Source: an uncultured bacterium
Lineage (GTDB): Bacteria > Patescibacteriota > Minisyncoccia > UBA6257 > 2-01-FULL-56-20
Assembly: GCA_963696395.1 (NCBI GenBank)
Contig: CAVOJZ010000002.1
Location: 720,619 to 784,618, forward strand
Direction of reading: 5' to 3'
DNA: 64,000 nt
This document shows, one piece after another, positions 13,692-48,494 of the stretch; within the stretch, counting starts at the first letter, position 1, and each line of letters begins with the position of its first letter. Under the pieces are notes generated by a model. The model saw nothing but the letters and a program-made list of their open reading frames with translations, made no database searches and was not told where the DNA came from. Made by a program: the position numbers and the translations under genes.

Positions 13692-15015
13692 ATTAATCAT
13701 CGCGGTGCTTTCGGGGGCGTTGGTTGCGGCGCTCGCAATGCCATTGGTTCGCACATTTGCCGATACGGCTTCGAGCACCGATTTTATGATTCAGGATGGG
13801 TTTGTTGGATTTTTTGGCGGCTATGCCTCATCAACCGATTTTCAGGTTGTGAGCGGCGGTGCGCCGATCATCAATTCGAATGCAACCAGCTCGGATTTTA
13901 ATTCGAATACCGGACCTGTGAATTACGGCGATTTTTCCCCGGTATCGCAAACGTGGCGGTGGTACGGCGATCCGAACGATGAAACGCCGACCAGTTCGCT
14001 TGCCGCAGAAAATACGGCGCCGTCGAATATTGCAAACGCCCAAATAATCAAACTACGGCTCAACATAAAGGAAACAAGCGGGATCATGGGAAGCGACAAT
14101 CTCAAGTTCCGGTTGGAGTACGCCGAGTCGTCAGATTTTACGGTCGCGCCCGGTTTTGTCGCCGAGGCGACGGGTTGCGGCGCTACGTCAACCTGGTGCT
14201 ATGCCACGAGCACCGGCGGCAATGATAATCAGATTATCTCGACCGCAATTCTTTCAACAAGCAACCCGTGCAGCGGAGGTGTCGGCAATGGTTGCGGCAC
14301 CCACAACACTTCGGGCATAAGTTCGGCAACGTCAACGCAGAACGCCGGCGCGACAACGGAATATGAATTTACCATCGTCGCATCGGGCGCCGGCAGCGGC
14401 AACACGTATTTCTTCCGTCCGATAAATACCGCAGACGGAAGCGTTGTTCCGCTCGGGGCCACATCGAGTTATCCAAGCCTTGTGACGCAGGGAGCAACAC
14501 TTACCTTTAGCGTGAGCGGTTTGCCACAAAGCACGAGTACGAACGGCGTCACGACAAATGTTTCAACGACGGCAACGGGGATACCATTCGGCACGCTTGC
14601 GCTTGGCACGAGCACGATCGGAGCGCAACGGTTGTACGTTTCAACCAACGCGGCGAACGGATATGAATTGTATACCGAGCAGGATCAACCGCTCATGGAC
14701 TCGCGCGGCGACCTCGTCCCCGGAGTTTTAGGGACCAACGCCAGTCCGCTTCCGTGGGCAAACGCCTGCGCCGCAACTTCGACGGGATGTTATGGCTATC
14801 ACGCCGGCAGTTCGGTGCTTTCAGGCGGTTCAACGCGGTTCGCCGCCGCCGACAGTTACGCCGCGCTCACCTCGACGATCGCCGAAGTCGGCTATAGCGG
14901 ATTTCCTATAACGAGCAGCACGATGGACATGGTCTACCGTGTCCAGGTCGCGGGAACTCAAGTGACCGGAGCGTATCAGGACAATCTCATGTATGTCGTC
15001 GCACCATCATACTGA
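13666..15015 (+). CDS. secreted surface protein carrying the shared C-terminal module (WxL-like)
   Basis: Signal peptide. C-terminal region (GIPFGTLALGT...NGYELYTEQDQ...QDNLMYVVAPSY) aligns with the C-termini of 17150, 18417, 26980 and 33629. Confidence 0.65.
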   Translation: MGRLKPLHKLIIAVLSGALVAALAMPLVRTFADTASSTDFMIQDGFVGFFGGYASSTDFQVVSGGAPIINSNATSSDFNSNTGPVNYGDFSPVSQTWRWYGDPNDETPTSSLAAENTAPSNIANAQIIKLRLNIKETSGIMGSDNLKFRLEYAESSDFTVAPGFVAEATGCGATSTWCYATSTGGNDNQIISTAILSTSNPCSGGVGNGCGTHNTSGISSATSTQNAGATTEYEFTIVASGAGSGNTYFFRPINTADGSVVPLGATSSYPSLVTQGATLTFSVSGLPQSTSTNGVTTNVSTTATGIPFGTLALGTSTIGAQRLYVSTNAANGYELYTEQDQPLMDSRGDLVPGVLGTNASPLPWANACAATSTGCYGYHAGSSVLSGGSTRFAAADSYAALTSTIAEVGYSGFPITSSTMDMVYRVQVAGTQVTGAYQDNLMYVVAPSY

Positions 15016-16007
15016 TGAATAAAAGATTTTTTCATACTATAGCGTTCGTGATGGTTGCGATCGGCCTTGTCGTCCGCGGATTTTTTATGTCCGAGGCGTT
15101 TGCCGCGGATCTCGTGGTCTCGCCGGCGGTGATAGACGGGAACGGCGTGCCCAACGACATTTTGAATTACACCGTTACGGTTGTTAACACAACAGGACAA
15201 CAGCAAAATGTATTTGCCTCGGTCTATGAACTCACGCCAAGCGGAACGCAGCCATTTACCGACCCTTCCGATTCAAATCGGCCGGCGTTGCTCTCCGATT
15301 GGATCAGCGTCACGCGCGGCGCGTTGTTGTTTGCTCCGCACGAGTCAAAGACATTGCCGGTTACCGTACAAATCAATCCATATGCGCTCGCGGGGGATTA
15401 CCACGCCGTCATTGCCTTCGTTGAGGGGGGCACCCGTGATGATGCCGAAACGCATCTTGTTGGTGCGCCGCAAGCCATCGTCAACATGTCCGTTGCATCA
15501 AATCTGGTGGCGAGCCTGAAGATCGACGCATTCGCTACAGCAAAAGGATTTTATTCCGGATTTCCGGTGGACTTTAATTACACAATCGAAAATTCCGGCG
15601 ATGTCGCCGCAACGCCATCGGGCCAGATCATGCTCTACGACCGTCTGGGGCACGAAATCGGTTCTCTTGACGCGAATCCGAACGGGATAAGCATTGCCCC
15701 GGGAGAAAAAAAATCGTTTAGCGCGACATGGTCGAGCGGCAGCGGACTTGGACAATATAAAGCGGTCCTTGATATTTCATACGGAGCGGACAATGATAGA
15801 CTTGAAAACACGGCGATCGTCTGGGTTTTGCCGTGGAAAAAACTCGCGATTATATTCGGCTCGCTCTTCGTTGTTATGATTATTACGGCCCTATGGTTGC
15901 ACCATGAATATGCGAAGCGCCATCATCGCCGCCGCCGCGCGCTCGAAGCCTTGTTAAAAAGGAAAACCATGGAGCCAATTCTCGACCTTCGCCATCCCCA
16001 TGAATAA
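15015..16007 (+). CDS. cell-surface protein with signal peptide plus C-terminal TM anchor (DUF916/CscA-like architecture)
   Basis: Signal peptide and an approximately 250-aa beta-rich ectodomain. A C-terminal TM (LAIIFGSLFVVMIITALWL) is followed by a basic tail (HHEYAKRHHRRRRA). Paralog of 16000, 19610 and 35578. Confidence 0.65.
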   Translation: MNKRFFHTIAFVMVAIGLVVRGFFMSEAFAADLVVSPAVIDGNGVPNDILNYTVTVVNTTGQQQNVFASVYELTPSGTQPFTDPSDSNRPALLSDWISVTRGALLFAPHESKTLPVTVQINPYALAGDYHAVIAFVEGGTRDDAETHLVGAPQAIVNMSVASNLVASLKIDAFATAKGFYSGFPVDFNYTIENSGDVAATPSGQIMLYDRLGHEIGSLDANPNGISIAPGEKKSFSATWSSGSGLGQYKAVLDISYGADNDRLENTAIVWVLPWKKLAIIFGSLFVVMIITALWLHHEYAKRHHRRRRALEALLKRKTMEPILDLRHPHE

Positions 16008-17073
16008 AAAAGTTGCCATCATCTCTCTTGTCTTTGTCTGCTCAGCGCTGCTTTTGCCTGCGGTGTCGTTTGCGCAATCCGCGGATTCAACTTCACTCAC
16101 CATCACGCCGCCGTTTTTCGAATTGAATGTGAGCCCCGGTGATTCGTGGTCGAGTTCGATCAGAGTGGTAAATACCAACGCAACCGATATTCAGGTTCAC
16201 GCGATCGTCATGGGCTTCGCTGCATCCGATGCCGAAGGGCACGGAAACTTTATCCCATTGTCCAATTTGTCGGGGGATAGCGATGCGCTCGCGAACTGGG
16301 TCACCGTTTCACCCTCCCCGATCACTGTGCCCCGGGGTGGTGCAACGGACGTCCCGTTTTCGATTTCGGTTCCATCGGACGCGTCACCCGGAGGCCATTA
16401 TGGCGCGATACTTATCGGAACGGGGGCGCCGACGGTTGCTTCGGGGACGTCGCAGGTCGGCGTGAGCAGCTATATTTCTGCACTGATTTTCGTGAGCGTC
16501 GCGGGCAATATAGTTAATTCGGCGCAAATCACTCAATTTTCAACAGACAAGGGTGCTTATCAGGCGCCGGATGTTCATTTCGCGGTCCGTGTACAAAATG
16601 ACGGCAATGTTCATGTGCGACCGGTTGGGTTCATTCAAATATACAACGCGTTCGGCAAGAAACGAGGTGAAATTCCTATAAATCAGTCGGGTAGTCTCGG
16701 ATATATCCTGCCGTCGAGCACCCGTGAATTCGATGTTGAATGGCAGGGAACGCCGAGTTTGCTTGATATCGGACCTTATACTGCCGTCGTGAGCCTTGCC
16801 TATGGGGAAAACGGCATCGACAGTATCTCGGAAACCGTTGGATTTTGGATTGTGCCAATTTGGCAGATTTTGGAGGTTCTTTTTGTGGCTTTGATCATCT
16901 CACTACTCTTTATATTTATCGTTCGTCGCTCCGTCCGGAAAATGCTTGCAAATGAGATGTCGCGATACGGCGAAATTCCGCCGTCGCAGCCAGAGCAAAA
17001 GAAAGCTTCCGAAAAAAAGAATAATTTATCATCCGGCGGGCACGACTCCGGAACTATCGACTTGAGAAGATAG
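16000..17073 (+). CDS. cell-surface protein, paralog of the anchor family (DUF916-like)
   Basis: Signal peptide. Conserved motif SPGGHYGAILIGTGAP. C-terminal TM (ILEVLFVALIISLLFIFIV) plus basic tail. Confidence 0.7.
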   Translation: MNKKVAIISLVFVCSALLLPAVSFAQSADSTSLTITPPFFELNVSPGDSWSSSIRVVNTNATDIQVHAIVMGFAASDAEGHGNFIPLSNLSGDSDALANWVTVSPSPITVPRGGATDVPFSISVPSDASPGGHYGAILIGTGAPTVASGTSQVGVSSYISALIFVSVAGNIVNSAQITQFSTDKGAYQAPDVHFAVRVQNDGNVHVRPVGFIQIYNAFGKKRGEIPINQSGSLGYILPSSTREFDVEWQGTPSLLDIGPYTAVVSLAYGENGIDSISETVGFWIVPIWQILEVLFVALIISLLFIFIVRRSVRKMLANEMSRYGEIPPSQPEQKKASEKKNNLSSGGHDSGTIDLRR

Positions 17074-17149
17074 GGAGCGATAGGCGATTGTGTATAACTT
17101 GCCGGCATTTTCGCGTTATAATACCTTCAAGAGCGAAATTTTTCTTTGC

Positions 17150-18286
17150 ATGCGGATTAATCGATCAACTTTAAGAAAAGACTTGTCTGTTTCGGCGGCG
17201 CTCGGTCTTTTTATCAGCATCACCTTGTGGACTGCCGGTTTTCAATATTTACCGATTGTTCATGCGGCGAGCCTTACTTCGGTGAAAGATACAATGAGCG
17301 ACTCCCGCCCCGGATATCCGGCTAACCACACGATCGTCTTCACGAATCCGTCTTCAACAGCAGCCGGACTCACCATTTCATACACCTTCGACCCCAATAC
17401 CAGCGCATTCGGCAGTGTCACTTCAACGAGTATTGCGAACGTTACTTCCACCGGTATGACCATCGTCTCCACCTGTTCGGCCGGCACCAACAACGTGAGT
17501 ATGGCAACAACCTCATATAACGTGCTCACCTTCACGGTCTGCGCGAGTAATACGGTTGCATCCGGAACGGTGACTCTGAAGATTCTCGGCAACACCATCA
17601 CGAACCCCACGAGCACCGGATCCTACATCATCCGCATCGGCGGCACCCAGCCGAGCTCGGCTGATACGCGTGTTGCCATTGTGAACGGCGTCAATGTGAC
17701 GGCCGCGGTTGCAACCACCTTCACTTTCACGGTTTCTCCGCTTGCGACATCAACCACACTCCTGAATAATGCGACGACGACGGGTAATGACACATCAACC
17801 ACTCTGCCGTTCGGAACCATCAGCCCGAATACCCACAACGAACTCGGTCAACAGCTCAACGTCACAACGAATGCTTCAAACGGGTTCGCGGTTACCATGC
17901 ATGAAGACCAGGACATGACAAGCAACAAGGGGAATGTCATCCACGTCTTCTCAAACGGAAACGCAACTTCAACGCCGAGCCCGTGGACTTCACCGCAGAA
18001 CATCATTAACCAGTCATGGACCTACGGTCATGTCGGTATCACGAGCGACGACGTGAGCAGCAGCATCGTCGGAGGACCGAATTTCGGAACCAGCACCCCG
18101 CTCTACGCAGGAAGTTTCAATCCGACATCAACGCTCACGGTATTCCTCTGGAATGGCCCGGCCGATGGCGTCACCCAGAATGTGGGAGCCGCGAAAGTTG
18201 CGGTGCGTATCGAAATCAGCCCTCTGCAGGCAGCCGCAAACGACTACACGAACAACCTAATCTACGTAGCGACGCCGGTGTTCTAA
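17150..18286 (+). CDS. secreted Thr/Ser-rich surface protein, tandem duplicate copy A (WxL-like C-terminus)
   Basis: Signal peptide. The mature region is about 99% identical to 18417..19553. Ends ...ANDYTNNLIYVATPVF. Start taken at the Met of MRINRSTLRKDL, by analogy with copy B. Confidence 0.7.
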   Translation: MRINRSTLRKDLSVSAALGLFISITLWTAGFQYLPIVHAASLTSVKDTMSDSRPGYPANHTIVFTNPSSTAAGLTISYTFDPNTSAFGSVTSTSIANVTSTGMTIVSTCSAGTNNVSMATTSYNVLTFTVCASNTVASGTVTLKILGNTITNPTSTGSYIIRIGGTQPSSADTRVAIVNGVNVTAAVATTFTFTVSPLATSTTLLNNATTTGNDTSTTLPFGTISPNTHNELGQQLNVTTNASNGFAVTMHEDQDMTSNKGNVIHVFSNGNATSTPSPWTSPQNIINQSWTYGHVGITSDDVSSSIVGGPNFGTSTPLYAGSFNPTSTLTVFLWNGPADGVTQNVGAAKVAVRIEISPLQAAANDYTNNLIYVATPVF

Positions 18287-19609: not shown

Positions 19610-20716
19610 ATGGATATATTACGATCGGTGGGCGGATGGGCGGGTCGAGTGGCAGCTGGAGCAGCAATGGTTTTTGTTGCGAGCGTCGTCTTCCCCGCAG
19701 GTGTTTCGCATGCTCAGACCGCCGTTTCAATGAAAATTCAACCGGCGCTTTTCGAGCAAACGGTTAATCCCGGCGATAAATTTTCGACATCATTAACAGT
19801 CACAAACCCGGGAACCACCGCGAAGCAATTCTCGGTCGGTGTGCAGGATATCACCGGAATCGATCAGGCAGGTGAGCCGATCTTCAGCTCATCATCCGTT
19901 CCGGAATATGGCGTAAGCTCATGGGTGCAGCTTGGCGATACGGCAATAACGATTCCCGCGGGAGGGAGCGTTACCGTGCCATTCACGATAATGGTTCCGA
20001 AGAACGCCGGCCCCGGAGGGCATTACGGTGCGATTTTCATTTCCTCCGGCGCGACCCGGCCGCAATTTAACGGAACAGGACTTGGCTATGAAGTTGGTTC
20101 GCTCATTGAGCTTCGGATCGCCGGTGACGCGACCGAACAGGCGGAGATCAAAGAATTTTCAACCGACAAATCGTTGTATCAAACCCCGAATGTGACTTTT
20201 ACCGCCTCCGTCGCAGATGAGGGCAATATTCTTCTTCAGCCGCGGGGTCCGATCGATATCGTAAATATGTTTGGGCAGAAAGTGGGAACCGTTGTCATAA
20301 ACGACCAGGGTTCATCAATCTTCCCCGGCGATCAGCGCGCCTTCAATGTGACGTGGAACGGTGGCGGATTCATGTTTGGCCAATACAGCGCCGTTATGAC
20401 CTTGAATTATGGTGACACCGTAAATAAATCCATCTCGGCGTCATTGTCATTCTGGGTTGTTCCGATTATGCCGATCGTCGCTGTTCTCGCAAGCATCATA
20501 TTCTTTGTCCTGATATTCGTCTGGTCCGTTAAGGTGTATGTCCGCAAGCGCGTCCGATCCATGACCGGTGGTCGCCAGGAACGGTCATCTTCATCCGACG
20601 AAGAAACGTTGCTTTCGGGAGGCGGATTGCCACTCTCTCGCCTTGTATTCATCGTCATTGCGACCGCCATCTTCGCAGTCATTTTCTTGATCGCCCTATT
20701 CTTCTTCTTCGGATAA
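19610..20716 (+). CDS. cell-surface protein, paralog of the anchor family (DUF916-like)
   Basis: Signal peptide. Motif GPGGHYGAIFISSGATRP. C-terminal TM (IMPIVAVLASIIFFVLIFVW), a basic/Ser-rich linker, and a second hydrophobic segment at the very C-terminus. Confidence 0.7.
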   Translation: MDILRSVGGWAGRVAAGAAMVFVASVVFPAGVSHAQTAVSMKIQPALFEQTVNPGDKFSTSLTVTNPGTTAKQFSVGVQDITGIDQAGEPIFSSSSVPEYGVSSWVQLGDTAITIPAGGSVTVPFTIMVPKNAGPGGHYGAIFISSGATRPQFNGTGLGYEVGSLIELRIAGDATEQAEIKEFSTDKSLYQTPNVTFTASVADEGNILLQPRGPIDIVNMFGQKVGTVVINDQGSSIFPGDQRAFNVTWNGGGFMFGQYSAVMTLNYGDTVNKSISASLSFWVVPIMPIVAVLASIIFFVLIFVWSVKVYVRKRVRSMTGGRQERSSSSDEETLLSGGGLPLSRLVFIVIATAIFAVIFLIALFFFFG

Positions 20717-22844: not shown

Positions 22845-23411
22845 ATGAGCTCTTTCTACGAAAAATTATCGGTGAAATTTCAGGATGGCGGGATCTCGGC
22901 ACCCGGCACCGGCACCGCGCCCGCAAAAACGGTCACTTTTAATGCGACCGGAGACCGAACTTCGCCAAAAAAAGCTGACGTCCCAGCCGCAACTCCACCG
23001 ACTGACGTGACGCCGGACGGCGCCGACCCGATTGATGTCGACCTTTTTCAATCCGAAACGCGGACCGTTGTTTTTATGCAATTGAGTGGCATTCCGGCGA
23101 ATGAACTTGCGGTGACGGTAAGCGAGGAATCAAACACGATCATTGTTGAGGCAGCGCAAAAACGTCCGGGTCTGCCTCCGTTACCCGGCGCAAAAGAAGG
23201 GGAACCGCCAGAGAAAGGAATCTATGTTAAGGCGGAGGTAAAGTGGCGCTCGCTGTACCGCAAGATCTATCTCCCGGCACCGTTTGATATCAGCGAAGCG
23301 ACCGCCACGCTCGACAAGGGCGTGCTCATTATAGTGTTGCCGGCAAAACATCCGGGCGTCGGCAAAAAAATGGTGGTTCAGGAAATCCGGCACGATGAAC
23401 AGAAAAAATGA
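22845..23411 (+). CDS. Hsp20/alpha-crystallin domain protein
   Basis: Alpha-crystallin domain motifs: IDVDLFQSETRTVVFMQLSGIPANELAVTV.EESNTIIVEA ... YRKIYLPAPFDISEATATLDKGVLIIVLPAK. The stop overlaps the start of the cohesin-like gene (ATGA). Confidence 0.7.
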   Translation: MSSFYEKLSVKFQDGGISAPGTGTAPAKTVTFNATGDRTSPKKADVPAATPPTDVTPDGADPIDVDLFQSETRTVVFMQLSGIPANELAVTVSEESNTIIVEAAQKRPGLPPLPGAKEGEPPEKGIYVKAEVKWRSLYRKIYLPAPFDISEATATLDKGVLIIVLPAKHPGVGKKMVVQEIRHDEQKK

Positions 23412-25186
23412 GGAAAGGGACATATCTTATTCTCGTCGCCCTTGGGTGGCTCATCGTTAGTCCGGGCATTTTTAATATCGCGGCGGCGCAAACGGCAGGA
23501 GGAAACGCCGCGCTCTCACTTTCACCTTCGAGCGGCTCGCACGCCGTCGGAGAAACGTTTACGGTGAGTGTCATGTTGGATTCCGGCGGCGGCGTGGGCG
23601 TAAATGCCGCCAATGGCGAATTGAGTTTTGACCCGACTCTCCTTGCGGTGCAAAGCGTTTCAAAAGACAATTCTATTTTTAATCTTTGGACGAGCAACCC
23701 TTCATTCTCGAATTCGCAGGGCACCGTTGATTATAGCGGCGGCAGCAACAATGCTTACACCGGAAATTCCGGGGATGTGGTTGATGTGACGTTTAAAGCG
23801 CTCGGTGCCGGCTCTGCGAATATAAAATTTGCATCGGCAAGCGCGCTTGCAGCCGATGGCCAGGGAACAAACGTCCTCGGCGGCACGACGGGCGCCGCCT
23901 ATACCATCGGAGGGGCGGCCGCAAAGCCGGCGGTGCCGGCATCGAATCCCGGATCCTCGCAGTCGCTCGCAAGCCCGGCGCAGGCTCCGTTCACGGTGAC
24001 GATCGCGGTCACATCTCCGACGCATCCGGATCCAAGTGCGTGGTACAACAACAACAGCCCGAATTTCACATGGGTACTCACGCCTGACGTTGCAGGCGTA
24101 AGCACTGCGCTCGATCAGAACCCGGGCACATATCCGAAGCGATCTTCTGCCGGCTTACTGTCGTCCAAGCAATATTCCGCCGTGCCGGAGGGGACATCGT
24201 ATTTCCATGTGCGTTTTGAAGATGCCCTTGGCGATTGGAGCGACCCAGTCAACTATCAGGTAAACATCGACGTGACGCCGCCGTTGCCCTTTACGGTGAG
24301 CGCTCTCACGGGTGCGGGTGTGAGCGGCAGGACCGAATTGATGTTCAATGCGACCGATACCGTTTCAGGGATCGATCATTACGTTGCAACGTTCGACGGA
24401 ACCATGTCGTCAACGATTGCATTGTCGGATGTCCAGAACGGCATATATACTGCTCCGCCGCTCCTGGCCGGCAAACATATTGTTGAAATAAGTGCATTCG
24501 ACAAGGCAGGCAATTATACGAGTGAAAATACCGAATTCACGATTTCCGGAGTTACGATGCCGGAGATCACTAATTTCCCAGCGACCGTCATCGAGAAATC
24601 TCCGATTGTTTTCGAAGGCATCGCCGACAGCGGGGCAAATGTTACGGTTGATATCAACGATGGCACCGGGAAAACGGTATCCGAGGGCAAGATGGTTGCC
24701 GATGAAACGGGCCATTGGCTGTACGCCGTCGAGAGCGGACTTTCAACCGGCAAGTATGCTCTCGGCGTTTCGATGGTTACAACGCAGGGTGCGTCCGTGA
24801 GTTCGACCGACAAATTGTTCCTCAATGTCATCATGGCCCCGTTCCTGGATCGATTCGGTTGGATCCTCATCATCCTTTTGCTGTCGTGCATCGGTGGACT
24901 TCTAACGTACGGCATGTACAAGAAGAAGATCCACGAAATGCAGCTCGCGCTTGCGAAACGGGAAAACGAAGAAGCGCGCGAAAAAACCAGGGCAGTGTTT
25001 GAAGCGCTGCGTGAGGAAATGGATGACCAGATCAGCCATATGGAAGGCGGTGCGGCGCAGGCGCAAGGTGAGGCCAAGCTTGAACCAGAGCGCGTCCTTG
25101 ATGAAGTGCGCAATGCGCTGGTGATTTCTGAGACGACCATTCAGAAGGAGATCGAGGACGTCAATAAGGCTCTCAATGAAGAATAA
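23408..25186 (+). CDS. membrane-anchored cohesin-like domain protein with a cytoplasmic coiled-coil tail
   Basis: Signal peptide. Cohesin-like N-terminal domain (SLSPSSGSHAVGETFTVSVMLDSGGGVGVNAANGELSFDP.LLAVQSV...SIFNLWTSNP...VVDVTFKALGAGSANIKF), then Ig-like domains. TM helix (FGWILIILLLSCIGGLLTYGMY), then a charged coiled coil of about 90 aa. Confidence 0.7.
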   Translation: MRKGTYLILVALGWLIVSPGIFNIAAAQTAGGNAALSLSPSSGSHAVGETFTVSVMLDSGGGVGVNAANGELSFDPTLLAVQSVSKDNSIFNLWTSNPSFSNSQGTVDYSGGSNNAYTGNSGDVVDVTFKALGAGSANIKFASASALAADGQGTNVLGGTTGAAYTIGGAAAKPAVPASNPGSSQSLASPAQAPFTVTIAVTSPTHPDPSAWYNNNSPNFTWVLTPDVAGVSTALDQNPGTYPKRSSAGLLSSKQYSAVPEGTSYFHVRFEDALGDWSDPVNYQVNIDVTPPLPFTVSALTGAGVSGRTELMFNATDTVSGIDHYVATFDGTMSSTIALSDVQNGIYTAPPLLAGKHIVEISAFDKAGNYTSENTEFTISGVTMPEITNFPATVIEKSPIVFEGIADSGANVTVDINDGTGKTVSEGKMVADETGHWLYAVESGLSTGKYALGVSMVTTQGASVSSTDKLFLNVIMAPFLDRFGWILIILLLSCIGGLLTYGMYKKKIHEMQLALAKRENEEAREKTRAVFEALREEMDDQISHMEGGAAQAQGEAKLEPERVLDEVRNALVISETTIQKEIEDVNKALNEE

Positions 25187-26979: not shown

Positions 26980-29517
26980 ATGACCCGCTATTTTTTAGTA
27001 TTTCTCATACTTGGCCTGTTTTTTTTCGTTCCACACGCCGAAGCGGCAACCTGGTATAACACGGCTTGGGGTTATCGAAATTTATTGACGATCAACGCTT
27101 CGAAGGTTTCATCGTCAAGCGTCACGACCTCAACTTACGTCAATTTTCCTGCCTTGGTGAGTTTTGCCACGAGCAGCCAGCTTGCATCGGCGGCGCAAGC
27201 GAGCGGTACCGACATTCTTTTTACCGACAGTGACGGCGCAACCTTATTGAACTTCGAAATCGAGCACTATACGAGTAGCACGGGAGAACTTGAAGCGTGG
27301 GTAAAAATACCGCTGGTTTCAACTTCCACGAATACAAATTTTTATATGTATTACGGGAATCCTTCCGCGACATCCAGTTTGCAAAACGTGACCGGAACAT
27401 GGAATAGCTATTACACATCGGTTTGGCACTTTCCGAGTATCAACGGCACCACAACCTTTTCGGCAAAAGACTCATCTGGAGACGGTAATAACGGCACCAT
27501 CGTCGGCGGTGCGACGAGTACGGTTGGGCAGATTGACGGCGCGGCAAATTTTAACGGGAAAAGCCAAGATATTACAACTCCCTATGTGCAAGTTTCGTCA
27601 ACTGCTTACACCGTTGAAGCCTGGATAAAAATTCCTTCGACTGCAACGACAACTCAAGTGATAGTAAATGACCGAGGCAGCGGCGCTGGCCACTCGCTCA
27701 CCCTCGCCCTCGACGGCAACCTTGCCTGCGGCAGCACATCCTGTGGCGGCACGCTTGGCAGCGTGGGAAGTCCGACCGGTAAGCTGATGTTCGGTGACGA
27801 CTCAAATAACATCTGGATCGGCACTGAGGCAAGCAACACAGCGATCAATGACGGTAACTGGCATTTCGTCGCCGGATCATGGACAGCGACTTCCGGCGTG
27901 GCCATTGCTCCAAGCCAGTTTAAGGTTTATGTCGACGGTGCGATACCGGTGACAGCGACATCAGGCAATACGGGAACCGACAGTTCGCCGCTGACCGGTC
28001 TTGCAAGTACTACGATCGCATACCATGCGCCATGGACCGCCTACTTCACGGGTGCGATCGACGAATTGCGCATCGCAGAAAAAAATTTGTCGGCCGCATG
28101 GATTGCGACCGAGTATAACAATCAAAAATCGCCCGCAACGTTCATCACGACCGCTCCGCAGGAGACCCCGCCGGCTTTCACGCAGTCCGATTTTCGATGG
28201 TTTGCAAACATTGCTTCGAGTTCCGTTGGATCGCCGCTTGCTGCGCAAAACACAACGACAACGGCGCAGTTGGTAACCAGCTCGACTTTTCGATTACGCA
28301 TGCTCATACGGGTGACCGGCAGTCAGCTCAATTCCAGTTCGCAAGCGTTCAATCTCCAATATGTGGATGCCGGGACCGGCAGTTGCACAGCTCCATCCGG
28401 GGGAAATCCGGCGAGTTATTCAAATATTTCAACATCAACCGGATTATTCCAGTATTTCAGCAATGCAGGCGTCACGGACGGTGGCCCTCTCGTGCCGACG
28501 AGCACCGATCCGGTTGACGGAACGAGCACAGTCGTCAACGAAACCTACGACCAATCCAATCCGTATTCGGATTCCCAGGGAGCGATACCGGCGACCGCGG
28601 ATGGAAAATGGGATTTTTCGCTTACCGACAGCGGGGCAAAAGTTGGGACAACCTATTGCTTCCGCGGGGTTACGGCGAGCGGCACTGCGTTTTCTTCTTA
28701 TGCCGTTTATCCAACGGTTGTGATTGGTAACGTCGCTCCAGCGGTTAGTGCGGTCACCTTGAATGGGAATAACAGCATTACCCTCATCGTCGCAACAACC
28801 ACTTTGATCCAGGCAACGGGGACGGTGAGTGACGGCAATGGATATACTGACATCGCGACAACCACTGCGGTAATCTATCGAACGAGCCTTGGCCAAAATT
28901 GTTCGCCTGATAATAACGACTGCTATATAACACCTGCTTGTTCTTTGAGCTCGTGCTTCGGGACGACGTGCAATGCCACGTGCGGCGCCCAGATATGGTA
29001 TTTTGCCCAACCAACCGACTCGGGAACACCGTGGTCGGGCGATTCATGGTCGGCGGCGATAAACGCAACCGATTTTTCAAATGCCACGGGGACAGCGACA
29101 AGCACCGGCGTCCAGCTTTTGTCGCTTCTCGGACTTCAGGTTGCGTCGTCAATCAGTTACGGATCTTTTATCCCCGGACAAACTATGGCTTCGCTCACGG
29201 TACCGGTCGCCATAACCTCAGTCGGTAATGTTTCCTTAAATGTCACATTGTATGGCACTAATATGACGAGCGGGGCAAACAGTGTTGCAGTTGGAAATCA
29301 ACACTACGCAACATCGGTCCTGTCTTTTGCGGCGGGCACTGCGTTGCTCGCCAATCCCGGCACGACTGTGGCGCTTGCAATACCCAAAACAACCTCGACG
29401 AATCCTGGAAGTACGCTTATAGATTGGGGAATTGCCATCCCGAGCCCCCAGGCGTCAGGGAATTTTACGGGAGTAAATACGTTTATCGGCGTGGAGAATT
29501 CGCTGCCGTGGCCATAA
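26980..29517 (+). CDS. secreted protein with DUF2341-like and LamG/concanavalin-A-like lectin domains and the shared C-terminal module
   Basis: Signal peptide. DUF2341-like N-terminus (WYNTAWGYRNLLTIN...TNFYMYYGNPSA). Laminin-G-like beta-sandwich (TVEAWIKIPS...GNWHFVAGSW...FKVYVDGA). The C-terminus aligns with 33629 (…GVNTFIGVENSLPWP). Confidence 0.7.
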   Translation: MTRYFLVFLILGLFFFVPHAEAATWYNTAWGYRNLLTINASKVSSSSVTTSTYVNFPALVSFATSSQLASAAQASGTDILFTDSDGATLLNFEIEHYTSSTGELEAWVKIPLVSTSTNTNFYMYYGNPSATSSLQNVTGTWNSYYTSVWHFPSINGTTTFSAKDSSGDGNNGTIVGGATSTVGQIDGAANFNGKSQDITTPYVQVSSTAYTVEAWIKIPSTATTTQVIVNDRGSGAGHSLTLALDGNLACGSTSCGGTLGSVGSPTGKLMFGDDSNNIWIGTEASNTAINDGNWHFVAGSWTATSGVAIAPSQFKVYVDGAIPVTATSGNTGTDSSPLTGLASTTIAYHAPWTAYFTGAIDELRIAEKNLSAAWIATEYNNQKSPATFITTAPQETPPAFTQSDFRWFANIASSSVGSPLAAQNTTTTAQLVTSSTFRLRMLIRVTGSQLNSSSQAFNLQYVDAGTGSCTAPSGGNPASYSNISTSTGLFQYFSNAGVTDGGPLVPTSTDPVDGTSTVVNETYDQSNPYSDSQGAIPATADGKWDFSLTDSGAKVGTTYCFRGVTASGTAFSSYAVYPTVVIGNVAPAVSAVTLNGNNSITLIVATTTLIQATGTVSDGNGYTDIATTTAVIYRTSLGQNCSPDNNDCYITPACSLSSCFGTTCNATCGAQIWYFAQPTDSGTPWSGDSWSAAINATDFSNATGTATSTGVQLLSLLGLQVASSISYGSFIPGQTMASLTVPVAITSVGNVSLNVTLYGTNMTSGANSVAVGNQHYATSVLSFAAGTALLANPGTTVALAIPKTTSTNPGSTLIDWGIAIPSPQASGNFTGVNTFIGVENSLPWP

Positions 29518-29542: not shown

Positions 29543-31027
29543 ATGCGTTTGCGTTATCTGATTGCCGTGGTTATCGTGGTGTCGGCGCTCGCCGCCGCTC
29601 CGTTCGTCTTTCGACGGGTGAGCGCCGACTCTTCGCCGACGATTTCAGATGTCTCCTTGGCGAACGTCGGCGCCACGTCCACCGTGCTCACGTGGACGAG
29701 TGACGTGAAGACAGACAGTTATGTTGATGTGAGTCAGGATACCAATTACTGCGGAATCCGGAATTCCGGAGGGTTGGACACATCTCACAGTGTTGCCGTT
29801 CCAAACCTTGAACCCGATACAACCTATTTCTTCAGGATCCGCTCGACCGATGCGAATGGTAATCAGAGTTTTTCGGGCGATTACACATTCACAACAACAA
29901 GTACGGGGAATACGCCGAGCCTGAGTTCGATCGCGAATCCGCAGCAACAAAGCCTTGCCGCCAAGGCAATTTCAGCCATCCAACAGATCGCGAGCCCGCA
30001 GGCATTGAGCGCCGTACAGCAATCACTTAATGCGCAGGCAAGCCAGGTGGTTGGGCCGCCAAAAATTTTAGGAAACCCTCAAATTGACATTGGAACCGAT
30101 CAAGCGACGATATCATGGAATACGGATGAGAATGCGAATGGGGTGGTTTATATCGCTTCAGACGCGGAATACAGTCCGGGTTCCTCGAACCCTTATTCGC
30201 GCGAAGAGCAGGACACGAACGACAGCACTCAATCGCACCAGGTTGTCGTGTACGGGTTGAACCCTTCAACGCTCTACCATTACCAGGTTTCCTCGCAGGG
30301 ATCGCTTGGCGATGCCGGAACAAGCGGAGATCTCACATTCACAACGAAAGCGGTTCTGCCAAACATTTTGAATCCGCACCTCGTAAAGGTGGGCGAGCAT
30401 GATGCGACAGTGAGTTGGGGCACGCCCCTGCCTTCTGCCGGGACGGTGACTTACGAAAACCTCTCAACAAGACAATCGGCCTCCGTTGGCGACCCGTCAT
30501 TCCTCGTGACCCACATCATCCAGCTCACCAATCTCATTTTCCAAACACGATATTCATTGACGATCCAGGCGACGAATCAGGCGGGGGATATTGTCACGAG
30601 CCAGCCGCTATATTTTGTAACAACAAAAAATATTATCCCGCCGATTATCTCGCAGGTTAATAACGATTCGACGCTCTATCCGGGGCAGGATACGACGGTT
30701 CAAACGGTGATTTCCTGGCAAACCGACGAACCGGCATCATGCAATCTTTCCTACGTGACGGGCGGCGCGACTGCGGAGGCGGATGTTGTCTCGTCAACGC
30801 CGGAAGCTGCATTTCTCACGAAACATGTGGATGTGGTCACTAACTTCGAGCCGGCAACCGTTTATAAGTATTGGGTTACGTGCACGGATACCGATGGAAA
30901 TACGACAAGCTCGGAGGATTTCGTCTTGCTTACGCCGGAACAGCAAAAGAGCATCGTTGACCTTATTATCGACAACTTTAAAGGTACGTTTGGCTGGTTG
31001 AATGGTGTCGGCGGCGCAAAAAAATAA
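29543..31027 (+). CDS. secreted/anchored protein with three FN3-like (purple-acid-phosphatase-N-like) domains
   Basis: N-terminal hydrophobic segment. The motif SxxxTSTVLTWTSD...TTYFFRIRSTDANGN...YTFTT is repeated three times. The stop lies 1 nt before the ABC ATPase start. Confidence 0.65.
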   Translation: MRLRYLIAVVIVVSALAAAPFVFRRVSADSSPTISDVSLANVGATSTVLTWTSDVKTDSYVDVSQDTNYCGIRNSGGLDTSHSVAVPNLEPDTTYFFRIRSTDANGNQSFSGDYTFTTTSTGNTPSLSSIANPQQQSLAAKAISAIQQIASPQALSAVQQSLNAQASQVVGPPKILGNPQIDIGTDQATISWNTDENANGVVYIASDAEYSPGSSNPYSREEQDTNDSTQSHQVVVYGLNPSTLYHYQVSSQGSLGDAGTSGDLTFTTKAVLPNILNPHLVKVGEHDATVSWGTPLPSAGTVTYENLSTRQSASVGDPSFLVTHIIQLTNLIFQTRYSLTIQATNQAGDIVTSQPLYFVTTKNIIPPIISQVNNDSTLYPGQDTTVQTVISWQTDEPASCNLSYVTGGATAEADVVSSTPEAAFLTKHVDVVTNFEPATVYKYWVTCTDTDGNTTSSEDFVLLTPEQQKSIVDLIIDNFKGTFGWLNGVGGAKK

Positions 31028-31028
31028 T

Positions 31029-32339
31029 ATGATTGAGCCGATAATCAAAGTTAACAATATCAAGGTTATTTACAATGAGGGTAAGGCAAACGAATACGAT
31101 GCATTGCGCGGGGAGAGTTTGGAAATTTATCCGAATGAATACATTATTCTTTTCGGGCCGTCTGGCTGTGGCAAATCAACGCTTCTCTACTCTCTGCTCG
31201 GCATTCTCCCGCCGACATCCGGCGAGGTGCTCGTCAAAAATGAAAATCCGTACAAGTACAACGTTAAGCAGATGGTCCGATTCCAACGGTCCACGGTCGG
31301 AATCATTTATCAATCGTTCAACCTGATTCCATCGCTCAGTGTGCTCGACAACGTTGCGTTGCCGCTCATCTTCGCCGGCATTCCGAAGGCGGAACGCGAC
31401 CGGCGGGGGATGCAACTTTTGAAACGGTTCGGCGTTGACCAGCAAGCGCATAAACTTTCAACAAATCTTTCCGGAGGACAATCTCAGCGCGTGGCTGTCG
31501 CGCGGTCGCTCGTGAACGATCCGGAAATTCTTTTCGCTGATGAGCCCGTCGGAAACCTGGACTCGTTGTCATCCGACCAGGTTATGGGCACGCTTGAGGA
31601 GATCAATATAAAAGATCGGAAAACGGTTATTCTCGTAACCCACGATGCAAAGTTATTGCCTTATGCCCATCGCGTTTATTATCTGCGCGATGGACAGGTG
31701 GAACGCGAAGTGATCAACCCCGAGAAAAAACAAATCAAACAGACCGACCCGGGGACATCGGTGCTTTCTGAAATTGAAAAACTTGCCCGTATTTATCCGT
31801 ATGCGTCGCCTCAGGAGCTCCGCGTGAAGAGCGTTGTTAATTTTTTGACCCAGGACGTCGGCTATGACCAGATTGAGCGTCTCGAAAAATGCGTGGGAAT
31901 GTATATAGACGGCAAGTTGAACGACGCCGGATTTGTCGAACATCTCACGAAAAACATCGAAATGGGCGGCCCCGAAATTAAGAAAGATCGGGCTGATTTG
32001 TTTTTGGAAAAAATTAACATTATCCTGAAGGAAGCTCGGGAAATCAGGGTTTACCGAGATAATTTCAGTGCCCGAGTCGCTTCCCCCCGGCAGGCCGACC
32101 GGATTGCCGAAGTCCGACAGGAAATTATGCGGGAATGCGGCTTCTCCCTGTCGCCGGAACAAATTGCCCGGTTCGATGAGTTGTTGAAATTCCGCATCCG
32201 CGGATTTATTCAGCAGGAGGATATGCGCAGACGGCTTGAGGGAAAGTTTGAAGATGACGGCATCGGCCTCAATCCCGACATTGCAAGAGAATCCTCGCGT
32301 TACCTTGAAAAGTTATTGGGCCAGGGCATGTACATATAA
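31029..32339 (+). CDS. ABC transporter ATP-binding protein (MacB/LolD/FtsE-type) with a C-terminal extension of about 210 aa
   Basis: Walker A GPSGCGKSTLL, Q-loop and signature LSGGQSQRVAVARSL, Walker B ILFADEPVGNLD. Residues about 230 to 445 lie beyond the ABC domain and match no family I recognise. Confidence 0.85.
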   Translation: MIEPIIKVNNIKVIYNEGKANEYDALRGESLEIYPNEYIILFGPSGCGKSTLLYSLLGILPPTSGEVLVKNENPYKYNVKQMVRFQRSTVGIIYQSFNLIPSLSVLDNVALPLIFAGIPKAERDRRGMQLLKRFGVDQQAHKLSTNLSGGQSQRVAVARSLVNDPEILFADEPVGNLDSLSSDQVMGTLEEINIKDRKTVILVTHDAKLLPYAHRVYYLRDGQVEREVINPEKKQIKQTDPGTSVLSEIEKLARIYPYASPQELRVKSVVNFLTQDVGYDQIERLEKCVGMYIDGKLNDAGFVEHLTKNIEMGGPEIKKDRADLFLEKINIILKEAREIRVYRDNFSARVASPRQADRIAEVRQEIMRECGFSLSPEQIARFDELLKFRIRGFIQQEDMRRRLEGKFEDDGIGLNPDIARESSRYLEKLLGQGMYI

Positions 32340-32349
32340 TTTTTATATC

Positions 32350-33555
32350 ATGAGAGCAATTGATGCATTAAAACTTTCGACGAGAATGTTCAAGACGAAT
32401 CCTGCGAGGACCTGGCTTACGATTCTCGGCATGGGCGTCGGCACGTCGGCCGTTGTGATGCTCGTCGGTCTTGGTTTTGGCTTGCAAAACATTCTTCTCG
32501 AGAAAATTGTTTTCGGGGACACCTTGCTCAGCCTCACGGTGACCAATCCGCCCTCGAACGCGGTCACGCTGAACGATGCGACCCTCGCCGAATTCAAAGC
32601 GATACCAAACGTGAACGATGTTTCACCGCTCGCGGATTTTTCTTCCGTTGTGACGTTCAACGGGTTGAGCGCCAACACGGATCTTCAGGGCGTCCAGGCG
32701 TCATATTTTAAATATGCCGGCATCGCGATGGCGGCAGGGAAGTCATTCACAGACAGTCCCGGTGACGGAAACGATATTATTCTTTCGAGCGCCGCACTTC
32801 AGTTATTCGGTGTCACCGACCCGAATCAGATTTTAGGGAAACCGGTATCATTCCGTGTCATCGCGTCGGCGGTTGGAACGTCGGGCTCGGCTGACCAGGT
32901 TCCGTTAAACGGCAATTTTACCGTGACCGGCGTGACGAACGATGCAGCGGCAATTTATGCCATGATTCCGCTTGCGACGCTTTCGTCGCAAGTCGGCATC
33001 ACCTCCTATGATAAGGTTCAGGTCCGCGTATCGGCTAGCGGTTTTTTGAACGACGTGCAAACGGCAATTGTCGCGGCTGGATTCGTTGTTTCTGCACTTT
33101 CAAAGACCGTCGATCAGGCAAATCAAATTTTTAGCGGTGTCCAGGCGGTGCTTGCCGGCTTCGGTGGTATCGCTCTCGTCGTCTCCGCAATCGGTATGTT
33201 TAACACCATGACCGTTACGCTGCTTGAGCGTACAAACGAAATTGGTGTTATGCGCACGCTCGGTGCGTCTCCGCGCGACATCCAGATTCTGTTTTTGTCG
33301 GAAGCGGTTGTTGTGGGATTCCTTGGGGGAATGACTGGCATGGCTATGGGCATCGCCGGAGGTCTCATCATAAATTACCTTCTCAATCTTGTTGCTGCGC
33401 ATTATGGGGGGGCAGCAGTAGCCCTTTTTGCCTTCCCGGGAACGTTTTTGGGGTTTATCACATTCTTTTCCGCAATCGTCGGCTTTATCACAGGAATTTT
33501 CCCTGCTCGCCGCGCGTCATCAATTAGCCCACTTGAGGCCATCCGCTACAAGTAA
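32350..33555 (+). CDS. ABC transporter permease, FtsX/MacB family
   Basis: N-terminal TM, a large periplasmic loop, and a C-terminal FtsX domain with three TM segments (MRTLGASPRDIQILFLSEAVVVGFLGGMTGMAMGIAGG). Start moved to the Met at 32350, after the upstream stop. Confidence 0.8.
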   Translation: MRAIDALKLSTRMFKTNPARTWLTILGMGVGTSAVVMLVGLGFGLQNILLEKIVFGDTLLSLTVTNPPSNAVTLNDATLAEFKAIPNVNDVSPLADFSSVVTFNGLSANTDLQGVQASYFKYAGIAMAAGKSFTDSPGDGNDIILSSAALQLFGVTDPNQILGKPVSFRVIASAVGTSGSADQVPLNGNFTVTGVTNDAAAIYAMIPLATLSSQVGITSYDKVQVRVSASGFLNDVQTAIVAAGFVVSALSKTVDQANQIFSGVQAVLAGFGGIALVVSAIGMFNTMTVTLLERTNEIGVMRTLGASPRDIQILFLSEAVVVGFLGGMTGMAMGIAGGLIINYLLNLVAAHYGGAAVALFAFPGTFLGFITFFSAIVGFITGIFPARRASSISPLEAIRYK

Positions 33556-35577: not shown

Positions 35578-36600
35578 ATGAAAAAAAGCTTTTCTATAAT
35601 TGCAGGGGTGCTCACTGTGACAGGATTTTGGGCAGTGGCGTTGATGCCAGCCTTGCGCGCGCAGGCGGACGGGTTTGGAATTACGCCGCCATACGTGACG
35701 AATGACCAGCTCACGCAAAATTCTGAATATGATCAGACGATTATTTTGGTACGGAGCAATCCGACACAAGACCTTCAAGCGAAGGTCTCTATTAATGTAC
35801 CGGGCGCAAATAACTGGATCACGATAGATCGAGGTACGCAATTCGTGCTTCCCGCAGGGACTCAGCAGGAGCCCATGATTGTGAGCGTGAAAGTTCCGGG
35901 AGATGCAAAGCTCGGAAATTATTCGGGGAATATTCAGGTGGTTGTTTCGCCGCTTGCAGGACCAAGCAAGGGAACGGTAGGCATCACGATCGGCGCTCAG
36001 ATAGATGTGAATCTCCAGGTGATCGATAGCCACAGCGCAAAGCTCGCTGTCCGGCGGGTTATCATGCAAAATACCGAGGTGGGACACACGTGGTGGTGGA
36101 TGCATTTTCCGGGAAAAATCATTTTCTCAATGGATTTGAATAATTCCGGAAATATATCCGGAGCACCTGGTAGGGTGGTGTTCCAATATCAGGTTTATCT
36201 TACGGGGAACACGCTCGAAACCGAACAAAACACGAACGGTCTCGATTCGGTTGCGCCGTTTCAGGCAAAGACCGTAATAGCCGAAATGCCGACGTATTTG
36301 CCGCAAGGCAGTTATAGGGTTTTTTATCAGATTTATGGACCAAACAACACGGATATTATCGGCCAGGGGAATTTGGATCTCGCTGTTTTGCCGGCCGGAA
36401 CGCTTGCGGGATATATAGGATATAATTTCTGGGGACTCCGGTGGAGCGAGAAGCTCATGACCTTTGGTATCATCATCCTTATTCTGCTCGTCCTCTACGG
36501 TATCTATGCGGGCATCCGCCTGTTTATTCGAAAGACTCGGCGGGGCGGGAGAAAAGGCAGGATACCAACGCCGCCCTCACCTCCGAGCCATTATCGTTAG
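35578..36600 (+). CDS. cell-surface protein, fourth paralog of the anchor family (DUF916-like)
   Basis: Signal peptide and beta-rich ectodomain. C-terminal TM (LMTFGIIILILLVLYGIYAGI) and basic tail (RLFIRKTRRGGRKGR). Confidence 0.65.
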   Translation: MKKSFSIIAGVLTVTGFWAVALMPALRAQADGFGITPPYVTNDQLTQNSEYDQTIILVRSNPTQDLQAKVSINVPGANNWITIDRGTQFVLPAGTQQEPMIVSVKVPGDAKLGNYSGNIQVVVSPLAGPSKGTVGITIGAQIDVNLQVIDSHSAKLAVRRVIMQNTEVGHTWWWMHFPGKIIFSMDLNNSGNISGAPGRVVFQYQVYLTGNTLETEQNTNGLDSVAPFQAKTVIAEMPTYLPQGSYRVFYQIYGPNNTDIIGQGNLDLAVLPAGTLAGYIGYNFWGLRWSEKLMTFGIIILILLVLYGIYAGIRLFIRKTRRGGRKGRIPTPPSPPSHYR

Positions 36601-36629: not shown

Positions 36630-37760
36630 ATGTTGAGCGGCTTTAAGAAGCTTTTGGTTTTATTATGCTTTGCGGTAATTTGCACACTTTTCACTGTGCC
36701 TTTTGCACGCGCCCAGTTTACAGCTTCAACAACAGTCAATATCAGCGTCTGCGGCAACGGCATCGTGGAGCCACCGCTTGAGGTTTGTGATGATGGCGTG
36801 AACAACGGGCAATACGCAACGTCTGCGGCCGGCCGAAATTGCTTGCCCGATTGCAGCGGCTGGGGACCATACTGCGGCGACGGAATTCTGCAGCCTTTGT
36901 TCGGTGAACAGTGTGATGACGGTAATAATATTTCCGGTGACGGATGTTCTGCAACATGTCAAATTGAGTCACTCCAACAAACCGGAGGCGGCGGAGGCGG
37001 CGGGGGAGGCGGGGGAATTTCCGGCGGCACATTTACGGAACCGAACCCCACCGAAGTGATCATTAAAGGGAAGGCATATCCTGGCTCGAGCGTAAGTATT
37101 CTCGACGACGGTACAACGATCGGCGTTGTCCAGGCGGATACCAGCGCCAATTTCTATTTTTCAACGACTAACATTTCTCCGGGCGTCGCAACGTTCGGAT
37201 TTTGGGCACAGGATTCGCAAGGCCTAAAATCAATCGCCCTCACGACCACGGTGACCATAACCGCCAACGCGGCGACAACGATCTCGGGAGAGTTCTTGCC
37301 GCCGACGATTGCGATTGATAAGCGCCAAATAGCGAAAGGTAATATTCTTACAATCTCCGGGCAATCGGTGCCGTCGGCAACCGTCGAGACCTATATCCAT
37401 TCCGGAAACCAAATTATGCTTGCGACGAGCACTGATGCAAGCGGCAATTGGAAGATCCTTTTCGACACAAAGCCGCTCGATAACAACCAGCTCCATACCG
37501 TGGATGCGGATTTTGTAACCACCGACAACGGCGCCGTGGCGCGCAGCGAAATAAGCCAATCGCTGTCGTTTTTTGTCGGTTCAGGCAGTGCCGGGAAAAG
37601 CTATCTCGCCGACCTGAACGGCGACGGCAAGGTGAATCTCGCCGATTTTTCCATATTGCTCTATTATTGGGGCACAAGCACCCCGCTTGCCGACCTCAAT
37701 GGCGACGGTAAGGTGGATTTGCAAGACCTGAGCATATTGCTGTATTACTGGACCGGCTGA
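36630..37760 (+). CDS. secreted protein with Myxococcus-type Cys-rich repeats, Ig-like domains and a C-terminal tandem dockerin
   Basis: Signal peptide. Cys repeats ([20 protein letters not shown]...[29 protein letters not shown]). Poly-Gly linker. Dockerin pair [22 protein letters not shown]...[20 protein letters not shown]. Confidence 0.75.
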
Positions 37761-48493: not shown

Positions 48494-48494
48494 G

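Follow-up and report, generated by a model that had tools for sequence, protein, structure and literature searches.

How does an ultra-small bacterium hold its adhesins on its surface? Members of the candidate phyla radiation (CPR, or Patescibacteria) are ultra-small, mostly uncultured and thought to be attached to other cells, and to our knowledge the way in which they hold and present surface adhesins is largely unknown. The question is raised in concrete form by a 64,000-nucleotide stretch from an uncultured CPR bacterium (Paceibacterota/Minisyncoccia; contig CAVOJZ010000002.1, positions 720,619 to 784,618), here called the window, which encodes five secreted proteins that we name by the first position of their genes (13666, 17150, 18417, 26980 and 33629). 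A sequence-only reading had proposed that all five share one C-terminal module of about 140 amino acids (aa), possibly a divergent WxL-type wall-association domain. We find that, at the level of sequence, the five C-termini are two families rather than one, and that the genes carrying them lie beside genes for membrane-anchored relatives of WxLIP, the protein encoded together with WxL proteins in Firmicutes. With moderate confidence, we propose that these genes encode a surface-display system built like a WxL (Csc) cluster but with different C-terminal modules, a system that has probably gone unrecognised until now.

Two families of C-terminal modules

All five open reading frames (ORFs) are present in the window, and each begins with a signal-peptide or signal-anchor sequence. 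Gene 17150 starts at an internal ATG of the ORF 17090-18286 (listed start, GTG at 17090), and this ATG matches the start of the paralogous 18417. The span originally assigned to the module, 29092-29517, does cover the last ~140 aa encoded by ORF 26980-29517 (845 aa, + strand), and a family-specific hidden Markov model (HMM) places the module at 29098-29514.

BLASTP among the window proteins separated type A (13666, 17150 and 18417) from type B (26980 and 33629), each highly significant internally. Within type A, residues 306-449 of 13666 align with residues 219-378 of 17090/18417 at 27% identity (E = 9e-9). The A-family HMM matches 13666 at E = 1.5e-19 (alignment 281-452 of ORF 13654-15012), a phmmer comparison of its C-terminus with A-family representatives gives 4.5e-20, and 17090 and 18417 are tandem copies with 93% identity. 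Within type B, residues 579-841 of 26980 align with residues 295-605 of 33629 at 32% identity (E = 8.5e-22), a stretch that comprises a Cys-rich immunoglobulin (Ig)-like domain and the terminal module.

The proposed alignment of the C-termini thus holds within each family and breaks down between them: BLASTP gave no A-B match, and each family HMM, run on the six-frame translation of the window, recovered its own members only. A single five-way family was therefore rejected, the only connection being a weak one by profile-profile comparison. In hhalign, A against B scored 26.9 (P = 0.0014), as compared to at most 17.1 in 30 column shuffles and 10-16 in five unrelated domain pairs. A more diverse A profile raised this to a probability of 42% (P = 2.6e-4), exceeding all controls, and adding secondary structure from AlphaFold2 (AF2) models gave 52-57%, with controls at or below 1.7%. 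The low-stringency A-B alignment is collinear across the whole module, and the order of strands agrees between the two AF2 models. Types A and B are hence probably distant relatives, joined by a weak link.

The motifs that had been named as common to all five proteins divide in the same way. Both types have an FG motif, invariant in A (F221/G222) and nearly so in B (I185/G188), and both have a terminal Y/F-x-x-x-P strand. NGY/NGF...DQ is confined to A and W-G-[LI] to B. More fully, type A is marked by N-G-F-x-V (G245 and V248 invariant, F246 nearly so) and by Y372-x-A374-x-P376, and type B by G-N-x-G-L and G-x-Y/F-T-G-x-N-T-F. The proteins end right after the last beta strand (...YVATPVF, ...YVVAPSY, ...ENSLPWP, ...RSAPGAW), and we saw no sorting signal or hydrophobic tail in any of the five.

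Neither module belongs to a described family: Pfam and NCBIfam assigned it to none, whether in the five proteins, in the modules taken alone or in 60 type-B relatives, and no Pfam domain covers it in any A or B family member looked at. Type A is nonetheless large, with at least 1535 relatives at 90% clustering; a full HMMER scan found at least 1290 representatives at 50% identity (E<=1e-3), 673 of them at 1e-10 or better. The match reaches the last residue in 149 of 150 listed representatives, the exception being a partial match, and the host proteins among these measure 144-1022 aa, mostly 340-400 aa. For type B, a word-indexed search yielded 61 relatives, and in ~52 of 59 matches 0-4 residues separate the end of the module from the C-terminus, the others again being partial. 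Overall, the module proteins come in small (310-385 aa) and large (450-2042 aa) forms, and their named relatives belong to Minisyncoccia, Paceibacterota and Parcubacteria.

At the other end of the type-A proteins, the mature N-terminus "AASLTSVSDTLSDSRPGYPANHTIVF" (18417 aa 39-81; also in 17150-18286) is nearly invariant at S46, D47, T48, L49, S52, P54 and H60 among 108 homologues. It is shared with a dockerin protein of the window, 21119 (aa 23-72; 44% identity over 50 aa, E = 1e-8). Between an actinobacterial WxL-like protein (locus L062) and the "AASLTSVS" mature N-terminus of 18417, BLASTP showed no significant similarity (E = 5.5).

WxLIP-like neighbours and conserved gene order

Four genes interspersed with the module genes (15015, 16000, 19610 and 35578; Table 1) encode paralogues that, as read from their sequences, begin with a signal peptide, continue with two Ig-like domains and close with a C-terminal transmembrane (TM) helix and an Arg/Lys tail. 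The same architecture, with a basic tail, has been described for WxLIP (PMC10599100), and we refer to the four proteins as LIPs. By BLASTP, 19610 and 16000 are 38% identical (E = 2e-63), 15015 matches 16000 and 19610 (E = 2e-25 and 5e-25, respectively), and 35578 matches 15015 at E = 2.8e-5.

Several comparisons point to WxLIP. Gene product 16000 is matched by a Firmicute WxLIP HMM (E = 3.8e-4), and two LIPs reach 24.2 and 19.6 bits against PF06030, for which the cut-off is 27.3. In hhalign, the LIP profile aligned with a profile of 22 Firmicute WxLIPs, taken from loci fetched in a genome scan for the proximal WxL motif DxRGTxAGWxL, at 96.8-97.5% probability (E = 2e-10 to 7e-12) over 215-225 columns that span both Ig domains (query 36-271, template 46-279). 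The NQIDKxxxYFDLK strand of WxLIP is reduced in the LIPs to P-P-F-F-E-L and A-L-F-E-Q, which hhalign pairs with YFDL. On these comparisons, the four neighbouring genes are recognisable as remote homologues of WxLIP (DUF916-DUF3324-TM).

The LIPs also connect the window to WxL-like loci elsewhere. An HMM derived from the window LIPs (lip4) matches genes lying beside WxL-like proteins that pass the WxL profile PF13731, both in Actinomycetota (loci L013, E = 8e-24, and L003, E = 6e-17) and in Saccharibacteria (L039; 7e-12 and 3e-11). For 16000, the similarity to actinomycetotal LIPs that adjoin WxL proteins is detectable by BLASTP alone. Since WxL-like proteins are present in Actinomycetota, in Clostridia-like metagenome-assembled genomes (MAGs) and in a Saccharibacteria genome, and several have a WxLIP-like gene directly beside them, WxL/WxLIP clusters are not confined to Firmicutes.

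We compared the window with ten further loci from distinct Paceibacterota/Parcubacteria assemblies (L121, L123 and L125-L132). Module genes lie directly upstream of a LIP gene in all 11 loci, very distant genomes included. Two of the loci, L128 and L130, are syntenic with the window, in the order large A, LIP, LIP, small A, LIP, small ORF, dockerin protein, HSP20, cohesin protein; the small type-A gene, duplicated in tandem in the window, is likewise doubled in L130 (6694-7857 and 8001-9164) and not in L128. Arrays of large and small B proteins with a single LIP at the end make up L123, L125, L126, L131 and L132. In L121, L127 and L129 the order is ABC, FtsX, B protein, LIP and dockerin protein, with a small A gene ~2 kb further on.

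The LIPs themselves divide along with the modules. All top-4 BLASTP matches of each of the ten B-associated LIPs are other B-associated LIPs, and the best matches of 35578 are all LIPs that stand 3' of type-B genes in other genomes. The A-associated LIPs fall into three orthologous groups by BLASTP; 15015 has orthologues in L128 and L130, and so has 19610, there in the same position. Such a clean split between A-LIPs and B-LIPs is the pattern that cognate module-receptor pairs would produce.

As with WxL domains, the modules thus stand at the C-terminus of signal-peptide proteins in both small and large forms, and they are encoded in clusters that hold a WxLIP-like gene and at least two module proteins. 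A WxL cluster has been defined by a minimum of one WxLIP along with two WxL proteins, and WxLIP in Firmicutes is nearly always found with WxL proteins (PMC10599100); the recurring set of large and small module proteins with one LIP fits this published definition.

Table 1. Module proteins and WxLIP-like proteins encoded in the window
Feature	Coordinates	Strand	Details
Type-A secreted protein, 449 aa	13666..15015	+	Signal peptide; middle domain aa 98-273, weakly shared with 26980; type-A module ~14494-15012
LIP-A1, WxLIP-like	15015..16007	+	Signal peptide, two Ig-like domains, C-terminal TM helix, basic tail; start overlaps stop of 13666
LIP-A2, WxLIP-like, membrane-anchored	16000..17073	+	PF06030 WxLIP_PGBD E 3.6e-5, 24.2 bits (sub-threshold)
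Small type-A protein, ~378 aa from ATG 17150	17150..18286	+	Type-A module ~17675-18283; tandem paralogue of 18417; A-HMM E 1.9e-104
Small type-A protein, 378 aa	18417..19553	+	N-terminal helix aa 5-36; beta domain 1 aa 43-177; type-A module aa ~176-378 (18942-19550)
LIP-A3, WxLIP-like, membrane-anchored	19610..20716	+	Directly 3' of both small type-A genes; PF06030 E 1e-3
Large type-B protein, 845 aa	26980..29517	+	Signal peptide, DUF2341, Laminin_G_3, middle domain, Cys-rich Ig-like domain, type-B module 29098-29514; B-HMM E 7.7e-42, alignment 711-848
Type-B protein, 609 aa	33629..35458	+	Type-B module 35003-35455; B-HMM E 2.8e-57
LIP-B, divergent WxLIP-like, membrane-anchored	35578..36600	+	Directly 3' of type-B 33629; lip4 HMM member

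Directly 5' of the type-B gene 33629 lie genes for an ATP-binding cassette (ABC) ATPase with a ~220-aa C-terminal extension (31002-32339) and a MacB_PCD/FtsX permease (32236-33555), an order kept in L121, L127 and L129 and absent from the other B arrays. This arrangement would suit a type-B module that acts as a recognition or export tag for the MacB-type system upstream. The five B arrays that have no adjacent ABC genes (L123, L125, L126, L131 and L132) argue against such a role, as do the ordinary Sec-type signal sequences of the proteins and the position of the A-type genes, which are not beside ABC genes; we regard it as highly improbable.

Relation of the modules to the WxL domain

The WxL domain contains two Trp-x-Leu motifs, a proximal D-x-R-G-T-x-A-G-W-x-L and a distal Y-x-x-x-L-T-W-x-L-x-x-x-P (PMC9772566). 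Given that the modules occupy the genomic position of WxL genes, beside WxLIP homologues, they could be extremely divergent true WxL domains (PF13731) that have Phe or Tyr for both Trp and bind peptidoglycan as well as WxLIP. Yet PF13731 (gathering score, 25 bits) found no match with E<=1 in the five full-length proteins and none with E<=10 in four isolated modules and four A relatives, nor in 60 B relatives. HMMs built from 89 reference WxL domains (58 Firmicute and 31 divergent), collected by the genome scan for the proximal motif, gave a best match of E = 0.26 in the window, which holds no canonical WxL domain.

Profile-profile comparison, the kind of test that the sequence-only reading had called for, gave the same picture. 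The P values from hhalign against the WxL profiles were 0.04-0.5 for A and 0.003-0.03 for B, the latter limited to 19-25 columns of the last strand, and the negative controls gave 0.024-0.056 (0.05 for lip4 against WxL, 0.024 for the first B domain against L039). Firmicute, divergent, SGP-type and TLTL-type WxL profiles and the Saccharibacteria L039 sequence were all tried, and all remained at the level of the controls. By comparison, the Firmicute, actinobacterial and Saccharibacteria WxL subfamilies, divergent as they are, detect one another at 95-99% probability (E = 3e-8 to 5e-20). The idea of a divergent WxL domain, as put forward by the sequence-only reading, is therefore not supported by the profile tests.

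The motifs can be read both ways. In a low-stringency alignment, collinear and not above noise, type A and Firmicute WxL pair at three places: FG with FG, "VTTNAsNGFaV" with "VtDnRGTxAGWxL", and "DYtnnLiYVaTP" with "YtttLtWtLsdaP". Loss of the distal Trp also has precedent among the 31 divergent WxL domains (Actinomycetota, Clostridia-like MAGs and one Saccharibacteria genome), which lack it, retain the proximal motif and pass or nearly pass PF13731 (21-51 bits). They end in ...GxYTxTLTLTLS, ...TVTLxxVSGP or ...GDYTGTISFDFL, and the first and last of these come near GAYTGQNTFIAV and DYTNNLIYVATP of the window. Against this, no Trp is seen at either WxL motif position in the A and B alignments, the D-x-R-G-T-x-A-G-W turn is absent, D-x-R included, and the last-strand motif recurs in unrelated beta-sandwich families (weak DUF4402 matches). 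Taken together, we consider descent from WxL somewhat unlikely.

WxL-like proteins without the distal Trp were present in L003, L011, L013, L019, L025, L039, L062, L105 and other loci, and several adjoin WxLIP-like genes. A match of the motif scan in a Parcubacteria locus (L071) was out of frame and was discarded as a chance hit.

Cargo, predicted fold and a candidate display system

The cargo that precedes the modules differs from protein to protein, as had been proposed. In 26980 it consists of DUF2341 (PF10102) and Laminin_G_3 (PF13385); long type-A relatives carry Laminin_G_3 (LamG), LVIVD repeats, Listeria-Bacteroides repeats (Flg_new), Y_Y_Y/FN3-like and BNR domains, and type-B relatives carry Kelch. 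In three genomes a Kelch propeller of ~300 aa is nested within the B module itself (L126 3773-5647; L131 4792-6663; L132 9028-10857): the insertion falls between B-HMM positions ~103 and ~113, splitting the match into positions ~2-103 and ~113-146, and the last two strands stay C-terminal. The same Kelch-in-module architecture is seen in proteins of more than 2000 aa in L126 and L131. A Thr-rich middle domain is common to the type-A protein 13666 (aa 98-273) and the type-B protein 26980 (aa 406-581), at 26% identity over 186 aa (BLASTP against a 23-protein database, E = 5e-4), which suggests that cargo is shuffled between module types.

AF2 predicts beta-sandwich folds for both modules. The model of 18417, made with the family alignment, has a mean confidence score (pLDDT) of 89.4 and shows an N-terminal helix followed by two beta domains; that of 33629 aa 295-609 has a mean pLDDT of 94.7 and consists of two beta-sandwich domains. 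Foldseek searches of the PDB matched type A to MSCRAMM N2-N3 domains (FnBPA/ClfA/ClfB), integrin calf/thigh domains, TasA and BslA, and type B to a CfaB pilin fusion and Fabs, with E = 7e-7 to 3e-4 and low TM-scores (0.2-0.37), BslA against one A domain (0.69) excepted. A sequence search of the PDB found no WxL structure.

Two further explanations draw on these folds. One is a fibre, pilus or S-layer assembled by beta-strand exchange, in which the abundant 380-aa A protein would be the major subunit, with the LIPs serving as its chaperone or as a basal anchor. The matches to the CfaB fusion (3f84, E = 7e-5) for B and, for A, to the TasA fibre (8aur) and BslA (TMt 0.69) are in line with it, and so are the wide spread and good conservation of the type-A protein, its tandem duplication in the window and L130 and its nearly invariant mature N-terminus. 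The AF2 monomers, however, are complete sandwiches (pLDDT 89-95) with no strand missing, the TM-scores to pilins are low (0.2-0.37), and the scanned genes of the cluster included no recognisable usher, sortase or SipW-type gene; the module also occurs on large proteins with bulky cargo, for which display fits better than polymerisation. A fibre is accordingly an unlikely explanation.

The other would take the modules for ordinary Ig-like structural domains with no anchoring role, and the adjacency to LIPs for the effect of a surface-protein gene island. Indeed, the whole 10-38 kb region of the window encodes secreted Ig-like, FN3, cohesin and dockerin proteins, and the fold matches are generic. 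Such domains would not be expected to keep to the extreme C-terminus so strictly, with the last strands held there even around a Kelch insertion, nor to precede a LIP gene directly in all 11 loci with a clean A-LIP/B-LIP split, and we find this account quite improbable.

We favour a display system arranged like a WxL cluster. In such a system, the proteins would be exported by the Sec pathway by means of their N-terminal signal sequences. The last domain, a beta-sandwich of 140-200 aa of type A or B, would then dock non-covalently on the cognate membrane-anchored LIP encoded just downstream. This receptor is a homologue of WxLIP in which two Ig-like domains precede a C-terminal TM helix and a basic tail in the cytoplasm; the module may touch the cell wall as well. 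The variable part (LamG/DUF2341, beta-propellers or Ig-like domains, N-terminal to the module or nested in it) would project outward and bind host cells or polymers, and the small proteins, with a short ectodomain and a module, would act as small WxL proteins do. The modular attachment design suggested earlier finds support in the C-terminal position of both modules, the diversity of cargo and the pairing with a LIP in every locus; the docking itself we infer.

Several observations weigh against this interpretation. The module-WxL profile scores are at noise level, so that context and architecture have to carry the parallel with WxL. The small A gene of L121, L127 and L129 is followed by a cohesin-like TM protein rather than by a LIP, the LIP of these loci following the B gene ~3 kb upstream. 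The fold matches in the PDB are to generic Ig-like adhesins and pilins. Binding between module and LIP, any contact with peptidoglycan and the display function are all deduced, and even in Firmicutes the model by which WxL binds WxLIP is in part computational (PMC10599100). Experiments cited in PMC9772566 support the binding of DufA to SwpA/LwpA and the attachment to the wall through WxL.

A bolder version, possible and put forward here only tentatively, is that A and B arose independently of WxL as two new families of docking domains, each of which co-evolved with its own lineage of WxLIP-type receptors. Together with a cohesin-dockerin pair they would form the main display apparatus of Paceibacterota, with the near-universal 380-aa A protein as a major surface component and the large forms as host adhesins of these episymbionts.

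A bona fide cohesin-dockerin pair is encoded in the same cluster and follows the same logic of design, a point in favour of the docking model. A Dockerin_1 domain, above the Pfam threshold in both cases, ends the secreted proteins 21119-22804 and 36630-37760, and 23408-25186 encodes an N-terminal Cohesin, a C-terminal TM helix and a cytoplasmic coiled-coil tail; this dockerin/dockerin/cohesin trio is conserved in L121, L123 and L126-L130. Because the first ~50 aa of mature 21119 are common to it and the type-A proteins, one kind of ectodomain is fitted with alternative docking devices. An HSP20/alpha-crystallin gene (22845-23411) lies between the dockerin and cohesin genes, amid the secreted-protein cluster, and keeps this position in L128 and L130.

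Elsewhere in the window, 5278-7878 encodes an 866-aa surface protein with four Big_7, three fn3 and two Big_13 domains and PG_binding_1 at its end, which would be a further, conventional C-terminal wall-binding device and implies a peptidoglycan wall. A GGDEF-EAL protein (45766-47358) is followed by a type IV pilin-like protein with an N_methyl motif (47377-48493) and then by large unannotated proteins (48402-51662, with fn3, and 52335-54599).

WxL clusters have been held to be essentially a Firmicute feature (PMC9772566), and our literature search found no paper that connects WxL or WxLIP with CPR bacteria. WxLIP-type clusters in Actinomycetota, Saccharibacteria and Paceibacterota extend WxLIP-based display well beyond Firmicutes, and conservation is higher in WxLIP than in the domain that would dock to it. 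What is new here is a probable WxLIP-based display cluster whose putative docking modules are two large unannotated families, a useful and somewhat surprising addition to CPR surface biology. Each family being paired with a recognisable membrane receptor, the design is concrete and testable, and models of the modules could make it possible to read from sequence, in thousands of Paceibacterota genomes, the surface proteome and the candidate proteins for host binding.

How does the putative system compare with known ones? To the Ig-like adhesins and pilins of the PDB, A and B are alike in having tandem Ig-like beta-sandwich domains, a resemblance of general fold only: they have no sequence similarity to these proteins and no sortase or usher context. 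With cohesin-dockerin display they share a plan, provided that the modules do dock on LIPs: secreted proteins of varied kinds end in a small docking module, and the receptor domain for it belongs to a partner anchored in the membrane or wall; fold and sequence are unrelated, as dockerin is a Ca-binding EF-hand-like repeat whereas A and B are beta-sandwiches.

The WxL-like proteins of Actinomycetota and Saccharibacteria (L003, L013, L039 and L062) come closer. Like the window modules, they adjoin LIPs of the same family (lip4 E = 8e-24 to 7e-12), and their last strand, G-x-Y-T-x-T-h-T-h without the distal Trp, resembles the endings in the window. Unlike the window modules, they have the proximal DxRGTxAGWxL intact and reach or nearly reach the PF13731 threshold (21-51 bits).

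The Firmicute WxL/Csc system (PMC9772566, PMC10599100; Brinster 2007 and Galloway-Pena 2015 as cited there) offers the closest overall plan. In both, a beta-rich C-terminal module of ~140-200 aa is carried by secreted proteins in small and large forms and encoded directly beside a WxLIP-family protein with a signal peptide, two Ig domains and a TM helix, and the order of large protein, small protein and LIP recurs. The window modules differ in lacking a PF13731 match, both Trp-x-Leu motifs and the DxRGTxAG turn, and no LPxTG protein is evident. They differ, too, in belonging to a CPR bacterium rather than a Firmicute, in that cargo can be nested inside the module (Kelch, in type B), and in coming in two types, each with a LIP lineage of its own.

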